Assembly (NCBI RefSeq): GCF_018350175.1 | Contig: NC_058377.1 | Span: 101,060,001-101,124,000, forward strand | Origin: Felis catus | Lineage: Eukaryota | Reading direction: 5' to 3' | DNA length: 64,000 nt | Shown: one piece after another, positions 44,708 to 63,781 of the stretch | How positions within the stretch are numbered: the stretch's first letter is position 1 | How the letters are laid out: every line of letters starts with the position of its first letter | Program-made: the position numbers and the translations under genes | The notes under the pieces: generated by a model | What the model was told of the DNA's origin: nothing | Seen by the model: the letters and a program-made list of their open reading frames with translations, nothing else | Database searches by the model: none

Positions 44708-45640
44708 TTAATTGATAAACCAATTTTTTTGAAACACTCTTTTCATTGCCTCTTTTACATCTTTGTTCCTTAAACTGTAGATGATGGGATTCAGCATGGG
44801 AATCACAATGCTGTAAAACATTGACACTATCACGTCATGGTCCAGAGCATAGCTGGAACTCGGTCTCACATACATGAAGAGGATGGTTCCATGATATATT
44901 GACACTCCAGTTAGGTGAGAGCCACATGTAGAAAAGACTTTCCGCCTCCCTGCAGCAGAATGAATCTTCAGAATGGCCAACAAAATGAAACCATAGGAGA
45001 TCAGAACTGTCAGGATAGTGACGATCTCAATGGAGCCCACAAGGTAGAAGAGCAGGAGCTGGTTTGTGTGAGTGTCAGAACAAGAAATGGCGAGGAGAGG
45101 AGGGATGTCACAAAAGACATGTCTAATTTCATTGGATGCGCAGAAGGACAGGCTGAATGTGGCCACTGTGTGTACGGAAGCATGCAAAATGCCACCCACG
45201 CAGGAAGCAATGATGAGTGGCACATAGACTCTGGGTGACATGCTCACTGAGTACAGGAGAGGGTTGTAGATGGCGACATAGCGGTCATATGCCATTGCAG
45301 CCAAGAGAAAGCATTCTGTGGTCCCAAAGGTAACAGCCAGAAACATCTGTGTTGCACATCCAAGGAATGAAATGATTTTATTCTTTGACATGAAATCTAC
45401 TAACATATTTGGAGTAATAACTGAGGAAAAACAAGCATCCACAGATGATAACACACTTAGAAAATAGTACATGGGATTGTGGAGCCGGGAATCCCCAATG
45501 ACTAATGAAACTAAAACCAAATTCCCCATCATAGTAAAGAGGTAGATTGCTAGAAACAGGAAGAATAAGATTGTCTGCAGCTCAAGCTTATCTGTGAAGC
45601 CCTTCAGTACAAATATGGTGACTTCCGTGTGATTCTTCAT
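44708..45640 (-). CDS. Olfactory receptor OR5T subfamily with OR5T2-like N-terminal half, intact, 310 aa
   Basis: [23 protein letters not shown] and [17 protein letters not shown] resemble recalled OR5T2; [24 protein letters not shown] and KVFSTCGSH are OR5T signatures. Confidence 0.92.
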
Positions 45641-55153: not shown

Positions 55154-55216
55154 TGTATTTCTCATTTAAATGCATCCCAGGGATACACATTTAGTTGGTC
55201 CCACTTTAACAACTGG

Positions 55217-55229
55217 ACGCACACACACA

Positions 55230-55263
<34 letters not shown>
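55217..55263. repeat. (CA)n microsatellite
   Basis: Seen directly. Confidence 0.95.
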
Positions 55264-55264
<1 letters not shown>

Positions 55265-55667
55265 GGAATTTCACACACATTTTACAAAATCTAGGACTAG
55301 TAACAGGTATGTAATTTTTATTATAATATTTTCAAATTTTTAAATTTCTATATTCATTCATATTTGAAGATTTTCAGACGATGCAATTGGAAGCAAGGTG
55401 GGAGAAAATTTAACAGAAAACAACTGGAAATTAACCCAATAATTGGCATAATTTGTTTAACATGAAAAATTTAACCAACAACTTAATAAAATAAGTTCTT
55501 TATTTATGCAGGATAATGTATCCTCTGGGACACAACTTCTTCATCACTGCCTTTTCTTTCACTGACAAAGATTTCAACGTGTCCTTCTAAGAAACAAACA
55601 TGAGAATACATAAAGTGGATTCTATTTTCAAAAATATCGCCTTTAAAACCTGCAAATAAACACTAAA

Positions 55668-56660
55668 ATGCCAGGGTTGACATTGGATTTAGATTTGTAC
55701 ACAATTAAGTTGAAAAATGTAACTGAGTTCACTACATTTATATTGACGGGTTTCACAGATAATTTTGAGGTGCAAATCTTCCTCTTTTTACTATTTCTAG
55801 CAATCTACCTTTTTACTCTGGTAGGAAATTTGGGGCTAGTTCTATTAGTCATTGGGGATTCTCGGCTACACAACCCCATGTACTACTTTCTGAGCGTATT
55901 GTCTTTCCTGGATGCCTGTTATTCTTCAGTTGTCACCCCAAAAATGTTGGTCAATTTCCTCGCAGAGAATAAAGCCATTTCCTATGTTGGATGTGCAGCG
56001 CAGATGCTTCTCTTTGTTACCTTTGGGACCACAGAATGCTTTCTCTTGGCTGCGATGGCATATGACCGCTATGTCGCCATCTACAACCCTCTCCTGTACT
56101 CAGTGAGCATGTCACCCAGAGTCTATGTGCCACTCATCGTTGCTTCCTACGTGGGTGGCATTTTGCATGCTTCCGTACACACCGTGGCCACATTCAGCCT
56201 GTCCTTCTGCGCATCCAATGAAATTAGACATGTCTTTTGTGACATCCCTCCTCTCCTCGCCATTTCTTGTTCTGACACTCACACAAACCAGCTCCTGCTC
56301 TTCTACCTTGTGGGCTCCATTGAGATCGTCACTATCCTGACAGTTCTGATCTCCTATGGTTTCATTTTGTTGGCCATTCGGAAGATTCATTCTGCTGCAG
56401 GGAGGCAGAAAGTCTTTTCTACATGTGGCTCTCACCTAACCGGAGTGTCAATATATCATGGAACCATCCTCTTCACGTACGTGAGACCGAGTTCCAGCTA
56501 TGCTCTGGACCATGACATGATAGTCTCAACATTTTACACGATTGTGATTCCCATGCTGAATCCCATCATCTACAGTTTAAGGAACAAAGATGTAAAAGAA
56601 GCAATGAAAAAACTGTTTGGTAAAAATTGGTATATCAATAAAGTCTACTTTTCACATTGA
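55668..56660 (+). CDS. Olfactory receptor OR5T subfamily (OR5T1/OR5T3-like), intact, 330 aa
   Basis: Extended N-terminus [15 protein letters not shown] as in OR5T1/3; canonical OR motifs throughout. Confidence 0.93.
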
Positions 56661-56928
56661 CCATTAAATTGAGAAAATTATGAATGCTATTGAGCATCTC
56701 CATATTAAAATAGAAATGTTTTGCTTTAGTTTATTTGTGTCTTTGTCTTCTTGCTATTTATTTTTATTTAAAGATTGTGGTCACATCTCACCTGTACATT
56801 TTTCACATATGTAGAAAATCTCTGTCATTCCTTTGCTTCTTCCTTAATTCATCTGGAAATACACACAGGCGCACACATACATTTATACACACATGTGTAA
56901 ATACACATGCATCTGTGATGAGGCTGAT

Positions 56929-57275
56929 TGTATTAACTTGCTCAGGCTGTCATAACAAAGTGCCACAGACTGGTGGCTTTCACAGCAGCAACCTATTGCT
57001 AACCGTTACAGAATCTGTAAGTCTGAAGGTGAAACGGAGTGAATTTCTTCCTCGTCCTCTCTCCTTCACTTGTAGATGGCAGTCTTCTCTTTCTGTCTCC
57101 ACATGGTCATTCCTCTCTGTGTTTCTGCGTTCTGATCTCTTTTTATGATACCAGTGATCTTGGATTAGGGTCCACTCTAACGACCTCATTTTAAGTTAAT
57201 TATCTCCTCAAAGGCTTTATTGTCAAATATAGTCATATTCTGAAGTATGGGGAGTTAGGTTTTCACATATGAATA
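56929..57275 (-). mobile_element. MLT1 (MaLR) LTR
   Basis: ggctgtcataacaaagtgccacagactggtggc ... ggattagggtccactctaacgacctcatttta ... atagtcatattctgaagta. Confidence 0.85.
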
Positions 57276-58095
57276 TTGGTATATATACCAATACATATAC
57301 ACATTATATATACATATATATACACGTATATATGTGTGTCTGTGCATGTACATGTGCACAAATGCATATATTCATTACATATAGATATATTTGCATATAG
57401 ACACATACATATATTTATTATTTGTAAGTATATTTATAAATACAGAGTCACATATGTATGTGATCTTTACTTTAAAATGTATAGTATTACCTTTCATCCT
57501 CATATGAGTCAAACTGGATACTCTCCCATAGTTGCAATTATACATAACTTGAAGATCATATCTGAATAGCTTGAGCAAATACTACGTCACTGGGAAAAAA
57601 AACCAAGCTCACATAATCCCAGTCCACTTTCATTGAGTCACTGGTATCTGACTCCTGATAAAATAACTCCGCTCCATCCTTAAAATCCATGCACTGACAG
57701 CAGGGACCATAGATAATATATTTAAATCCCTGGTGTCATTACCACGCTGCTTGTGAGAGTACGTCTCTCCTCTTTTTGTTATTTCATTCAAAGCATGGAC
57801 ATTAAATCCATTTTTCTTCCTCACAGAATACAGAATACAGAATACAGAATTCAGACGTTAGCACTGATCAAGATTATACTTAAACTCAAGAGCAACAAAA
57901 AACAAGCACAATTCAGAGAGTGAGTTACAGCTGGCTGGCAGAAGCTGAGTTAAGCTGCAGCCCAACTTTATGGGCTTTCCTACTAACCTGGTATAGACTC
58001 AGCTTCGGCTCTCTTTTCTTCTGACCACTACCACCTTATTATGGTCTTACAGACGCCACTACTCCTCGGTGCCCAGACCCAAGAACCAAGGCATA

Positions 58096-58290
58096 GGGGT
58101 GCCTGGTGGCTCAGCTGGTTAAGCGACCGATTTCAGCTCAGGTCACGATCTCATGGTCTGTGAGTTCGAGCACCCCATCGGACTCTGTGCTGACAGCTTA
58201 GAGCTGCTTCAGATTCTGTGTCTCCCTCTCGCTCTCTGTCCCTCCCCAGCTAGTGATCGATCTCTCTCTCTCTTTCTATCAAAACTAAGA
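58096..58290 (+). mobile_element. Can-SINE
   Basis: ggggtgcctggtggctcag head. Confidence 0.85.
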
Positions 58291-58432
58291 AGCATTATTT
58301 TTTTTTTAAAGAACCATCCCAACTATACTCATGTTTAGCCCTGTTTCCAACAGACCTCATTTTAATTGCAAGGACATGTGTCCTTCAAAGTTAATTCATT
58401 GTAAGTGGTTGTGTTTTTCAATCCTTCCTTCC

Positions 58433-58646
58433 TTTTTTTTTTTAAAGTTTTATTTTTACTTATATTGAAAGAGAGAGAGAGTGAGCAAGCAAGGGAGGGC
58501 AGAGAGAGAGGGAGACAGAATCCCAAGCAGGGCCCACGCATCAGTGCTGAGTTCCACACAGGGCCCTAACCTACAAACTGCGAGATCACAACCGGAGCTG
58601 AGACCAAGAGTCAGATGCTTAACTGACTGAGCCCCCCTGGTGCCCC
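58433..58646 (-). mobile_element. Can-SINE
   Basis: TSD tccttcc. Confidence 0.85.
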
Positions 58647-58697
58647 TCCATCCTTCCCTCTTACATTTCATTATCATCATCATCATCATCATCACTA

Positions 58698-58890
58698 TTA
58701 TTTTTTTATTTATTTTGAGAGAGGGAGAGAGAGAGACTGGGGAGGGGCAGAGAGGGAGACAGAGAATCCCAAAGCAGGCTCCACAATGTCAGTGCAGAGC
58801 CACAAGCAGGGCTTGAACTCACAAAACATGAGATAGTTACCTGAGCCAAAATCAAGAGTCAGACACTTAACTGAGCCAACCCAGAGCCCC
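58698..58890 (-). mobile_element. Can-SINE
   Basis: Flanked by ctattatt; the right copy has expanded to (TAT)n. Confidence 0.85.
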
Positions 58891-59929
58891 TATTATTATT
58901 ATTATTATTATTATTGTTATTATTATTATTATTATGTGTTGAATCCCTTTGGTTCCAACAAGATGATCTCCTTAGAACACAGAGTACTACTGAAGGCTAT
59001 TTCCCTAAAGAGGGATCATTACGTACAAATAACACCTTAACTGTATAAACATAGATAATCTTTTACCACAATATATATGCCCCAACAATTTTTCTGCATT
59101 TTTTTTCCTTCTGTTTGCAAGGTTTTCTGGGCTGTCATTCACATAACTCCTGTTTTTAAATGCCTATTCTTAGTGAGGAGTTCATTGACTACATTATGAT
59201 AATTAGAATTTACTTCCTTTGAATATCCTCATATTCTTTCCTTCTTAAATACACTCCTTTCACTTATCACAATTTCATATAACATGCATTTAATTTATAT
59301 TTGATTTATTGTCTGATCTATTTTCCAGACATATGTGTCTGGAATTTTATCTCACACATATTGTGGCTCAATCAACATTCCCTAAATGAACAAATTGTGT
59401 ATATAAGAAATTGTCAAAAAGATTTTATTTAACTCAATGAAGGGATGCATGTGAAAAAGAATGTTATTAGGTACTGCCTTAGATTTTCTAATTTACATTT
59501 TTCCTTTAAAATCTATCCTCTCTCTCTCTTGATCACTTTGCTATTTTTTTCTATCTTTCTCATTTGGGTACAAATTTTCCAGTGAATATTATGTCAGTGG
59601 AATCACGCATATTTCAGCACTTCATGTTTTCATAATCAGTATTTCTGATTTTTTCCCATTTCTTTTGACTTAAGGATAGTTTAGTAACATACAAAAATGC
59701 TTAAATGAACACATTGAGAGGTTTTTTTTTTTTTTTTTTTTACATTTGTCCTTCATTTCTAAATAGAATGAGATTTTGAGAAACTTTTTTATTCAGGTCT
59801 TAGTCATCACTAATGTATGGAAGGTTTCATAAATGCTGCACTACACTTGTAAAGACAATTATCACAAAGCTTTTCTACATACTTACCTACAAAAATAACC
59901 TTATTGAAGGTTTAAAGTCTTTATGTACG

Positions 59930-60145
59930 TTTTAAAAAAAATTTGAATGTTTATTTTCGAGAGAGAGAAAGAGACCGAGCATGAGTGGGGAGGGGCAGAG
60001 AGAGAGGGAGACACAGAATCTGAAGCAGGCTCCAGGCTCTGAGCTGTCATCACAGAGCCTGACCTGGGGTTCAAACTTGCAAAATGTGAGATCATGACCT
60101 GAGCCAAAGTCTGATGCTTAGCAGACTGAGCCACCCAGGTGCCCC
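59930..60145 (-). mobile_element. Can-SINE
   Basis: TSD aagtctttatgt. Confidence 0.92.
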
Positions 60146-60329
60146 TAAGTCTTTATGTCTTAATTAAAGTTTTCTTACTTGAAAACAATACAGGCGTATA
60201 AAGTTTTCCTAAAGTTAGCAGGCTTTGTTCCATTTCTCTCGTTGCATCTCCTGTATGAGAAGTTTCCTGTTTGGGATAGATATTGCTACATAACCATTTG
60301 CATAGACAACATTCACTCTGGAGAGGTAG

Positions 60330-61101
60330 AGTCCAAGTGGAGGCATCCACCTGCAAGGACAGAGGGATGTGGTTACCCCCTAGGACGGTGGACTCAAAGC
60401 AGCAATCAGAATTGTCTTGCCCATTTATAAGCAAGGCAATGGCAAGTTGATCATGGTATTTCTAGAAGTGAAAGAGATGAAAAAACACTGAATTCTGACT
60501 TGATCTATATAAGCAGGTTAAGTGAACAAAAGTCGAACTTGAATCATAAAAACTGTCATTGTGGGAGCTCAGCAATCAGTTTGTGAACTGAGGAAGATTT
60601 TAGCCCTAGAACCTCTTCAGCGAAGGGAGGTCAGGTACCCTTGAGGGATGAACCTTGCATATTACCAAAAAATTTAAACTATCAATCTTTCTCCAAGCCT
60701 TTGCCAAAGGGACTTTGGACATTTACCAGGGTAACGGTGCATTAGTGAAAAAGAAATAACCAGGTCTTTGGGAACTACTGGATACTAGTTCTGAACTGAT
60801 GATGATAATTCTAGAAAACCCAAAACATCACTGTGTGTTTGTGTTTTTGTGATCCAAGAGTCAGGGGAGGGGCTTGTGGAGGTCAGGTGATCAATGGAGT
60901 TTTACTTCTGGCCGATGTCGCAGTGAGGCCAGTGTGTCCCTGGCCCATCCTCTGGTTATTTCTCCAGTTCCAGAATGTGTAATTGGAATAAAACAACTGA
61001 GACCCTGGAAGAATCCCCACATTGGTTCCCTGACATGTGAGTTCGGGTTATCATGATGGAAAAAGCCTAGTGGGAGCAACTCTAACTGTCTCAACCAAGA
61101 A
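60330..61101 (+). mobile_element. ERVL internal remnant (gag/protease region)
   Basis: ctactggatactagttctgaactg = LLDTSSEL (ERVL protease LLDTGSEL); [26 protein letters not shown] matches recalled HERVL pol; 5' boundary approximate. Confidence 0.8.
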
Positions 61102-61346
61102 ACCATACGATTGCTATATAGCAATCTACAACCCTCTCTTGTACTCAGTGAGCATGTCACCCAGAGTCTATGTAACACACTCAGTGTTTCTTCCTATGTG
61201 GGTGGCATTTTGCATGCTTTTGTACACACAGTGATGACATTCAGCCTGTCCTTCCATGCATCCAATGAAATTATACATGTCTTTTGTGGCATCCCTCCAC
61301 TACTTGCCTTTTTTAAATTATATTTTAGATGTTTTTAATGTTTATT

Positions 61347-61400
<54 letters not shown>

Positions 61401-61606
61401 TGGGAGAGGGGAAGAAGAGAGGGAGACATAGATTCTGAAACAGGCTCCAGGCTCTGAGCTGTCAGCGCAGAGCTTGATGCAGGGCTCGAACTCACGAACT
61501 GTGAGATTACGACCTGAGCTGAAATCAAAACTCAGATACTTAACCGACTGAGCCACCCAGGCACCCCACTACTTGCCATTTTTTGTTCTGACACTCACAC
61601 AAACCA
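61102..61606 (+). pseudogene. Internal OR5T fragment (end of TM3 to ECL2), frameshifted and SINE-interrupted
   Basis: Reads [23 protein letters not shown] / [39 protein letters not shown] [SINE] IFCSDTHTN; no TM1-2 or TM5-7 nearby. Confidence 0.9.
61309..61567 (-). mobile_element. Can-SINE inserted in the OR5T fragment
   Basis: TSD actacttgcc (61299-61308 and 61568-61577); long (AG)n. Confidence 0.93.
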
Positions 61607-61799
61607 TATATACATACATAAATGCATATATGATGTATGTATGTATAATATGTTTATATATCATGTATGTATATAATGTAGATATAAGGTACACACAGAC
61701 ATATTATATATACATATATTTATATATTTGAACCGTTGTTGCTTTTCTCTCAGCTCTATTTCTATTTGTCTTTCACGACACTTAAATACACCATCAATA

Positions 61800-62020
61800 G
61801 GGGGTGCCTGGGTGGCTTAGTTGGTTAAGCGTCTGACTTCTGCCCAGGTCATGATCTCACAGCTCGTGGATTCGAGCCCCGCATCGGGCTCTGGGCTGAC
61901 AGCTCAGACCCTGGGGCCTGCTTCAGATTCTGTGTCTGCCTCTCTCTCTGCCCCTCCCCCACTCGCACTTTGTCTCCCTCTCAAAAATAAATAAACATTA
62001 AAATTTTTTTTTTTAAATAA
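61800..62020 (+). mobile_element. Can-SINE
   Basis: TSD taaatacac(c/t)atcaata. Confidence 0.92.
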
Positions 62021-62169
62021 ATACACTATCAATAAATGTTACTGTTCTATGACTGGACAGTAATAAGAAAAGATTCTGATAATGGAATAAAGATATATAA
62101 TGTTGAGCCAAACAGTGGAAATGCCATGGCAATAAGCCTGGATGGATCTTACTCCAAAATAAGGCAAAT

Positions 62170-62404
62170 GGGGGCGCCTGGGTGGCTCAGTCGGTTAAGC
62201 GTCAGACTTCGACTCAGGTCATGATCTCGCGGTCCCTGAGTTCGAGCCCCGAATTCGGGCCCTGTGCTGACGGCTCAGAGCCTGGAGCCTGTTTCAGATT
62301 CTGTGTCTCCCTCTCTTTCTGACCATCCCCCATTCATGCTCTGTCTCTCTCTGTCTCAAAAATAAATAAACATTAAAAAAAATTAATAAAAATTAAAAAA
62401 AAAA
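62170..62404 (+). mobile_element. Can-SINE
   Basis: TSD ataaggcaaatg. Confidence 0.93.
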
Positions 62405-62815
62405 CATAAGGCAAATGAAGTAACATTAAGGTCTTCACAGGACTCCAGAATGGAGAAGTAACCTCATAATGAGTGCTAAAGACTATCAGCTGTGTGAACA
62501 TGTTCTAATCCATAGGATCCCGAGAACATAAACCATAGTAGTAGTCAGTGCAAATCGCATTCCGCAATGATGGACAACAACAATACACTTACATCAATTA
62601 ATATTTAATATGAATCCATTTGAACACAATAAAAGTAAACAGATGATAAAAATTATCTATATTTGTAAAATGCTGTGTTCAAAGGCTGATAAATGCTTTG
62701 TTGGAAAATATTCTAGGATATACAAGCACTGTTACTGCAACCAAGACATTTTCTTTAGTTTCTGAGCAAAGAGACTTGGACTGGTATGAAACTCAGTGTT
62801 GAAAATGTATTTTAC

Positions 62816-63781
62816 TTAGGAACCAATTTTTACCAATTTTTTCATTGCTTCTTTTACATCTTTGTTCCTTAAACTGTAGATGATGGGATTCAGCATGGGA
62901 ATCACAATCGTGTAAAATGTTGAGACTATCATGTCATGGTCCAGAGCATAGCTGGAACTCGGTCTCACGTACGTGAAGAGGATGGTTCCATGATATATTG
63001 ACACTCCGGTTAGGTGAGAGCCACATGTAGAAAAGACTTTCTGCCTCCCTGCAGCAGAATGAATCTTCCGAATGGCCAACAAAATGAAACCATAGGAGAT
63101 CAGAACTGTCAGGATAGTGACGATCTCAATGGAGCCCACAAGGTAGAAGAGCAGGAGCTGGTTTGTGTGAGTGTCAGAACAAGAAATGGCGAGGAGAGGA
63201 GGGATGTCACAAAAGACATGTCTAATTTCATTGGATGCGCAGAAGGACAGGCTGAATGTGGCCACGGTGTGTATGGAAGCATGCAAAATGCCACCCACGT
63301 AGGAAGCAACGATGAGTGGCACATAGACTCTGGGTGACATGCTCACTGAGTACAGGAGAGGGTTGTAGATGGCGACATAGCGGTCATATGCCATTGCAGC
63401 CAAGAGAAAGCATTCTGTGGTCCCAAAGGTAACAAAGAGAAGCATCTGCGCTGCACATCCAACATAGGAAATGGCTTTATTCTCTGCGAGGAAATTGACC
63501 AACATTTTTGGGGTGACAACTGAAGAATAACAGGCATCCAGGAAAGACAATACGCTCAGAAAGTAGTACATGGGGTTGTGTAGCCGAGAATCCCCAATGA
63601 CTAATAGAACTAGCCCCAAATTTCCTACCAGAGTAAAAAGGTAGATTGCTAGAAATAGTAAAAAGAGGAAGATTTGCACCTCAAAATCATCTGTGAAACC
63701 CGTCAATATAAACATGGTGACTTTGGTCACATTTTCCATCTGAATGCTGTGTAAATTTAAATCTGATGTGAACCCTGACAT
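62816..63781 (-). CDS. Olfactory receptor OR5T subfamily (OR5T1-like), 321 aa, C-tail altered by a 4-bp deletion
   Basis: [15 protein letters not shown]-terminus; 7TM core nearly identical to the gene at 55668-56660. Confidence 0.92.

Follow-up and report, generated by a model that had tools for sequence, protein, structure and literature searches.

Repeated gene conversion as the likely source of a near-identical core in two convergent OR5T-like olfactory receptor genes of the cat

Birth-and-death evolution is the usual description of the olfactory receptor (OR) family. Interlocus gene conversion among mammalian OR paralogues is reportedly the subject of the work of Sharon et al. from 1999, to judge by its title. 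In this family neighbouring cluster members are known to exchange coding segments, which gives mosaic genes and obscures orthology; gene conversion among OR paralogues is treated as established in the parts available of PMC7055050 and PMC1794568. Here we analyze a stretch of 64,000 nucleotides from Felis catus (contig NC_058377.1, positions 101,060,001 to 101,124,000, hereafter the window) that contains two OR5T-like receptor genes, A and B, in convergent orientation. The locus resembles the known cases in the respects just mentioned, but unlike them it consists of one convergent pair homogenised over 292 codons and maintained so in felids, canids and pinnipeds. Our literature search, which covered subscription journals thinly, found no paper on OR5T gene conversion in carnivores, and passages of PMC3308321 and PMC10463633 had nothing specific to it.

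Two further systems invite comparison. Concerted evolution of HSPA1A/HSPA1B, with HSPA1L as a partly converted neighbour, is reported in the accessible text of PMC2989893 (citing Kudla et al. 2004). As far as that text goes, both loci are made of single-exon neighbours with a homogenised coding region and differing promoters and untranslated regions, and both have a partly converted third gene (HSPA1L there, gene C here). HSPA1A/B are, however, arranged in tandem and homogenised over the whole coding sequence, whereas A and B form an inverted pair in which, among felids, codons 1-23 and the tail are spared. The second parallel is with the inverted-repeat inversion systems outlined in the available portion of PMC3961182, in which near-identical arms around a kb-scale spacer likewise are substrates for non-allelic recombination. 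Unlike those systems, the arms of A/B are shorter than 1 kb, are coding and are not segmental duplications, and the locus is known in one orientation. The parts of the locus are the following:

55668-56660, plus strand: gene A, intact OR5T-like olfactory receptor of 330 amino acids (open reading frame, Pfam 7tm_4, felid protein matches)
62816-63781, minus strand: gene B, intact OR5T-like receptor of 321 amino acids (open reading frame, Pfam 7tm_4, felid orthologues)
55737-56612, plus strand: left arm of the repeat, the homogenised codons 24-315 of A, matching the right arm at 873 of 876 positions
62837-63712, minus strand: right arm of the repeat, the homogenised codons 24-315 of B, matching the left arm at 873 of 876 positions
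55407-55736, plus strand: 5′ flank and first 23 codons of A, outside the converted tract, about 70% identical to head and flank of B
56613-62836, no strand: spacer of 6224 bp with both C-terminal tails and 3′ ends, short interspersed nuclear elements (SINEs) and an OR5T fragment (self-BLAST and sequence)

Both genes are single-exon reading frames with a Pfam 7tm_4 domain (E 3e-48 for A and 2e-47 for B), and they face each other tail to tail across the 6224-bp spacer. Their top matches are called olfactory receptor 5T1-like or 5T3-like, with 93-98% identity in feliforms, these names stemming from automatic annotation; gene A is 97-98% identical to felid proteins named OR5T1-like and the felid orthologues of B are named OR5T3-like. 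The Felis catus model P0149 in UniRef has a core identical to that of A at every residue.

When 55737-56612 is compared without gaps with the reverse complement of 62837-63712, the arms differ at three positions: 55761 (A/G, N32/D32), 56054 (G/A, silent) and 56175 (G/A, V170/I170). Two of the three are CG/CA changes. No other of the 59 receptor pairs that were aligned has an identical run as long as theirs, which measures 437 bp. An earlier note on this DNA had described the 876-bp inverted repeat with just these three differences and an abrupt loss of identity at both ends, and both observations hold. Its statement that the repeat is confined to coding sequence is correct and can be narrowed, as the tract comprises exactly codons 24-315 and is thus smaller than the coding sequence, with the first 23 codons and the C-terminal tail lying outside.

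Outside the tract the two genes are clearly diverged. In the head (codons 1-23) 49 of 69 positions are identical (Jukes–Cantor distance, JC, 0.37) and in the 5′ flank (55407-55667) 181 of 261 (JC 0.39), the flank being 69-73% identical. The tail agrees at 32 of 44 positions and carries a 4-bp insertion or deletion (indel) right at the 3′ edge of the tract; 3′ of the stop codons SINEs alone can be aligned. A divergence of 0.3% in the tract thus stands against 29-31% in the homologous head and flank. The neutral rate is near 2e-9 per site per year, and at this rate the distance of the flank (261 sites) would correspond to roughly 90-100 million years. The signature of a recent segmental inverted duplication, flanks as alike as the gene, was not found at this locus: the 5′ flank is diverged and the 3′ flank unalignable.

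A paralogue 127 kb away, gene E, serves as a reference. In head and flank it shows JC distances of 0.22-0.45 to A and B, and its core differs by 15% from both. Since E is equally distant in head and flank, the cores of A and B should differ by about as much had there been no exchange. At this 15% core divergence the probability of at most three differences in 876 positions is 9e-57, and at 5% it is still 5e-16. Fourfold degenerate sites differ at 1 of 144 positions between A and B and at 43 of 117 between A and E. A Sawyer-type permutation on polymorphic sites gave p = 1e-4 for A-B, which is the floor of 10,000 shuffles, and no signal for A-E or B-E. With respect to the N-terminus we noted that residue 15 of A (window 55668-55712 up to this residue) is leucine, at the position of the usual start methionine of B, C and E; gene A therefore likely needs the upstream ATG, and its N-terminus would be 14 residues longer.

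The comparison with other species used proteins only. A and B could be paired in 13 felid species, the window included, and 16 caniform species were paired by hand by tail class from tails of 10-15 residues. Two models, P0038 and P0132, were excluded from the pair counts as chimeric (a B head followed by C-type residues and a C tail); model errors of this kind are described in the part of PMC7055050 available. Pair counts, core tree and approximately unbiased (AU) test further exclude Ensembl-type duplicates, three records of ENA, the clouded leopard (A only), hyaenas, meerkat, panda, foxes and the extra caniform copies P0050, P0023, P0184 and P0186.

In the 13 felids the heads of A and B differ at 12-15 residues, and 12 residues are diagnostic for the locus, all of them in codons 4-23 and none in the core. 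The cores of A and B from the same species differ at 1-6 of 290 residues (mean 3.5); the corresponding figures between species are 6.5 for A orthologues and 5.5 for B orthologues. In 12 of the 13 species A and B carry common residues which depart from the felid majority, for example T103 and L220 in both Prionailurus species, V218 in the snow leopard and L59 in the window. Measured against this majority, A alone carries N32 and B alone I170, which fits mutations that arose after the last homogenisation. The tract does not end at the same place in all lineages: most felids have N315 as a mark of A, the window and the cheetah do not, and in the leopard cat A-type residues in B continue across the indel.

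A tree of the core with 61 rows needs five changes of the family label, which is the minimum, and 17 of the locus label. A clade of all A sequences is rejected (delta lnL 289, AU p 2.8e-70), the test depending on the tail labels given by hand. Dogs, bears, mustelids and seals have the tail class of B alongside an A-type one, and canids, pinnipeds and mink have 1-7 differences between the A and B cores. In the caniforms the heads are homogenised too (0-5 differences of 24). In the few pairs examined outside the Carnivora, whose pairing is uncertain, no strong homogenisation was found (lemur 25, rabbit 40, tamandua 49 and aye-aye 15 differences of about 290).

Logan contigs of four sequencing runs from four separate studies were compared over 55200-56000, that is, over the 5′ third of the tract. 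In all four runs one contig follows the flank of A up to 55791, a loose-ended contig with the head of B joins at 55737 with one other letter, and the arm from 55762 onwards is a single contig. In three runs the depth of this shared arm roughly equals that of both heads added together (61 versus 27+35, 54 versus 36+25 and 35 versus 15.5+16). Sequencing runs were sought as DNA, and of 20 that contain the sequence none is recorded as RNA. At 55569 in the 5′ flank of A, three of the four runs carry an A>G variant.

We conclude with high confidence that A and B go back to an old duplication and that their cores are 99.7% identical most likely by repeated interlocus gene conversion since before the radiation of the cat family. 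A break in one arm would be repaired without crossover from the other arm 6 kb away, on the same chromatid, the sister or the homologue. Purifying selection would hold the core free of indels and the arms would therefore remain pairable, and extension of the tract may be blocked on one side by the many substitutions in the head and on the other by the 4-bp indel at codon 316. According to the part of PMC3961182 available, mammalian conversion tracts usually measure a few hundred bases and rarely exceed 1 kb; the 876-bp tract was therefore probably built up by many short overlapping events and not by one. Genes C and F would take part in the exchange over shorter stretches. The outcome would likely be two loci with separate promoters and a near-identical receptor core, and no benefit need be invoked for it.

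Several points weigh against this conclusion. A double crossover is not distinguishable from conversion by sequence. The cross-species support consists of proteins alone, with caniform A/B labels assigned by hand from tails of 10-15 residues. Some of the residues common to A and B (S212, L238, A286 and Q247) recur across several lineages and are weak evidence singly, and 34 of the 57 inner branches of the core tree have values under 80, most branches within the felids being weakly supported. Bears, with 22-23 core differences of 290, and five of the six mustelids, with 9-16, are far less homogenised. Finally, in run X12 the shared contig has single and not summed depth, and the contigs, compared over 55200-56000, do not phase the arms and drop rare variants.

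Exchange is also visible in a third gene of the window:

44708-45640, minus strand: gene C, OR5T-like, 310 amino acids, mosaic; 5′ third of another lineage, codons ~116-315 largely common to A/B

In A coordinates, C shares an identical run with B at 56015-56138 and with both A and B at 56184-56379, and its identity to A is 96-100% over 56050-56499 versus 73-85% over 55750-56049. Fourfold sites differ between C and A at 15 of 29 positions in codons 24-115 and at 2 of 65 in codons 116-238. The mosaic is kept in all six felid C-type proteins checked (25-27 differences in residues 25-115, 2-3 in residues 116-237). Up to about codon 115 gene C belongs to the C/F lineage, and the same split is found, more weakly, in a bat and a pig protein. 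We take this own-lineage third to reach through those residues of transmembrane segment 3 (TM3) which differ from A/B; the edge of the mosaic could be a divergence barrier or reflect selection on specificity. Gene F, 17 kb beyond B, has shorter runs in common with the A/B/C group. The permutation gave p = 1e-4 also for A-C, B-C and C-F.

For the wider cluster we surveyed 890 kb around the window, which hold 70 intact OR-like reading frames; a shared-word filter reduced their 2415 pairs to the 59 that were aligned. Twenty pairs have a 300-bp window with at least 97% identity, and in 14 of these both flanks are below 85% identical (bins at -600 and +700). This coding-limited pattern involves 22 of the 70 receptors, and 12 of the 14 pairs are co-oriented. 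A/B is the cleanest coding-limited case, yet neither the pattern nor the inverted orientation is special in the cluster. By comparison, receptors 55 and 60 (G000:C21:101364016-101455749) are a true recent duplicate, with 93-100% identity through both flanks. In the same region receptors 56/57 have 5′ flank and coding sequence in common but not the 3′ flank, and 58/59/61 form another coding-limited set. Among the co-oriented receptors 7, 8, 9 and 11 (L018-L021, G000:C21:100772251-100801961) the 5′ flank is common to 8/9 and to 7/11 and the 3′ flank to 7/8; unequal crossover between direct copies would give such combinations of flanks.

Conversion might be real but kept by selection for two loci of one receptor, with more neurons per odorant; that two promoters for one binding pocket could raise its representation among sensory neurons had been suggested in the earlier note. 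The frames of both genes are intact in all 13 felid species having both models, homogenisation persists in canids and pinnipeds, and the 437-bp run exceeds that of every other aligned pair. On the other hand bears have let the pair diverge, and since 14 of the 20 closest pairs in the 890 kb are coding-limited no special cause is needed for A/B. We regard such selection as possible but unlikely. A broader scenario seems to us somewhat more doubtful still: the OR5T group might form a conversion network older than the Carnivora with tract edges set by selection, A and B would be one receptor at two loci doubling its share of neurons, crossovers inverting the spacer would be purged or rare, and C would keep its own TM1-TM3 third.

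It is rather improbable that crossovers also occur between the arms and make the 6.2-kb spacer an inversion, polymorphic or recurrent. The earlier note had proposed that the arms are substrates for inversion; the geometry indeed permits it, a crossover would swap tails and 3′ ends, and inversions mediated by inverted repeats recur in humans as far as PMC3961182 could be consulted. Swapped heads and tails, however, occur in none of the 13 felid species in the named gene models, which represent one assembly per species so that a rare polymorphism would be missed. Ten of the 13 felid A-head models have the tail of A and three are uninformative spliced models, all 13 B-head models end in B-class tails, and in hyaenas and meerkat an A-like head still goes with an A-type tail. 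Of three ENA records one, P0142 on a 1157-bp contig, joins the head of A to the tail of B and is possibly chimeric. Short-read assembly is unable to phase a repeat of 876 bp, and the C/AB/C mosaic of another ENA record, P0134, is also expected from chimeric assembly; short-read chimerism would account for both records as well as biology does.

The tails themselves are variable. The C-terminal tail of B (62790-62836) is shortened and frameshifted relative to A by the 4-bp indel in most felids; three Lynx species lack the shift, and the leopard cat has a different one. Read in the other frame, the B tail of the window corresponds to the longer tail of the Lynx proteins, and short tails like that of B end proteins of lemur, rabbit and reindeer. 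Models of 355 amino acids in Canada lynx, bobcat and leopard cat have the head of A with a foreign tail, which maps to 62637-62762 and belongs to a 40-codon frame at 62637-62765 (plus strand), antisense to the 3′ end of B. We considered a deletion or inversion as their origin and rejected it, as the junction is compatible with an AT-AC intron and the Canada lynx protein P0133, with the same private residues, has the ordinary tail of A. From this we infer that the 355-residue RefSeq models are spliced models, and the join of A to antisense B is probably a propagated annotation error. If read-through at 62637-62765 were real, the transcript would contain both arms and could fold back on itself. 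The spacer holds one more receptor remnant:

61104-61606, plus strand: broken OR5T fragment, interrupted by a SINE (blastn and tblastn), 86% identical to A over 209 bp

It lies on the strand of A, is 86% identical to A, B and C alike and is not homogenised, and it appears to have left the conversion network.

The three remaining explanations have little standing. Near-identical arms are what mis-polishing would produce if the reads of one gene had overwritten the other; reads were compared over the 5′ third of the tract, and run X12 shows single depth. This is very improbable, as two heads enter one arm in every independent run, depth is about summed in three of them, and the cores are near-identical in 12 other felid species. 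We would be just as surprised if an 876-bp piece had recently been copied once, in inverted orientation, into an older receptor gene of this lineage. Such an event would explain the sharp edges and the mere three differences, but in 13 felid species each gene has a head and a tail of its own together with a near-identical core, and the residues common to A and B vary by lineage. No single event can produce this pattern, and in-register replacement would be gene conversion renamed. Strong purifying selection alone on old paralogues deserves next to no credence: identity is confined to the transmembrane core, where constraint is highest, but the identity of A and B at fourfold sites rules out protein constraint alone, and extreme synonymous constraint would be needed in this pair only.

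The central claim of the earlier note, an old duplication with recent or recurrent conversion and not a recent duplication, is thus borne out by flanks, synonymous sites, cross-species trees and independent contigs. The flanks are not as similar as the tract, which would have pointed to a simple recent duplication. The note expected the paralogues to cluster by species within the tract but by locus beyond it. At the protein level we find clustering by lineage in the core and by locus in the felid head: the 12 diagnostic residues lie in the head and none in the core, the core tree groups by family, and the AU test rejects a locus clade. The suggested inversion is left with its geometry and not with an observed swap in the named felid models, and the note overlooked the partial tracts of C and F, the pattern across the Carnivora and how common such pairs are in the cluster.

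To sum up, A and B present a clean and long-lived case of concerted evolution in the OR family; the process is known and the OR5T pair is a new example. If dosage selection or live inversion were true, the locus would be a natural test of the roles of copy number and 3′ ends in receptor choice. Such pairs resemble recent lineage-specific duplications in OR trees, and they therefore inflate gain counts and confuse orthology, read mapping and gene models.

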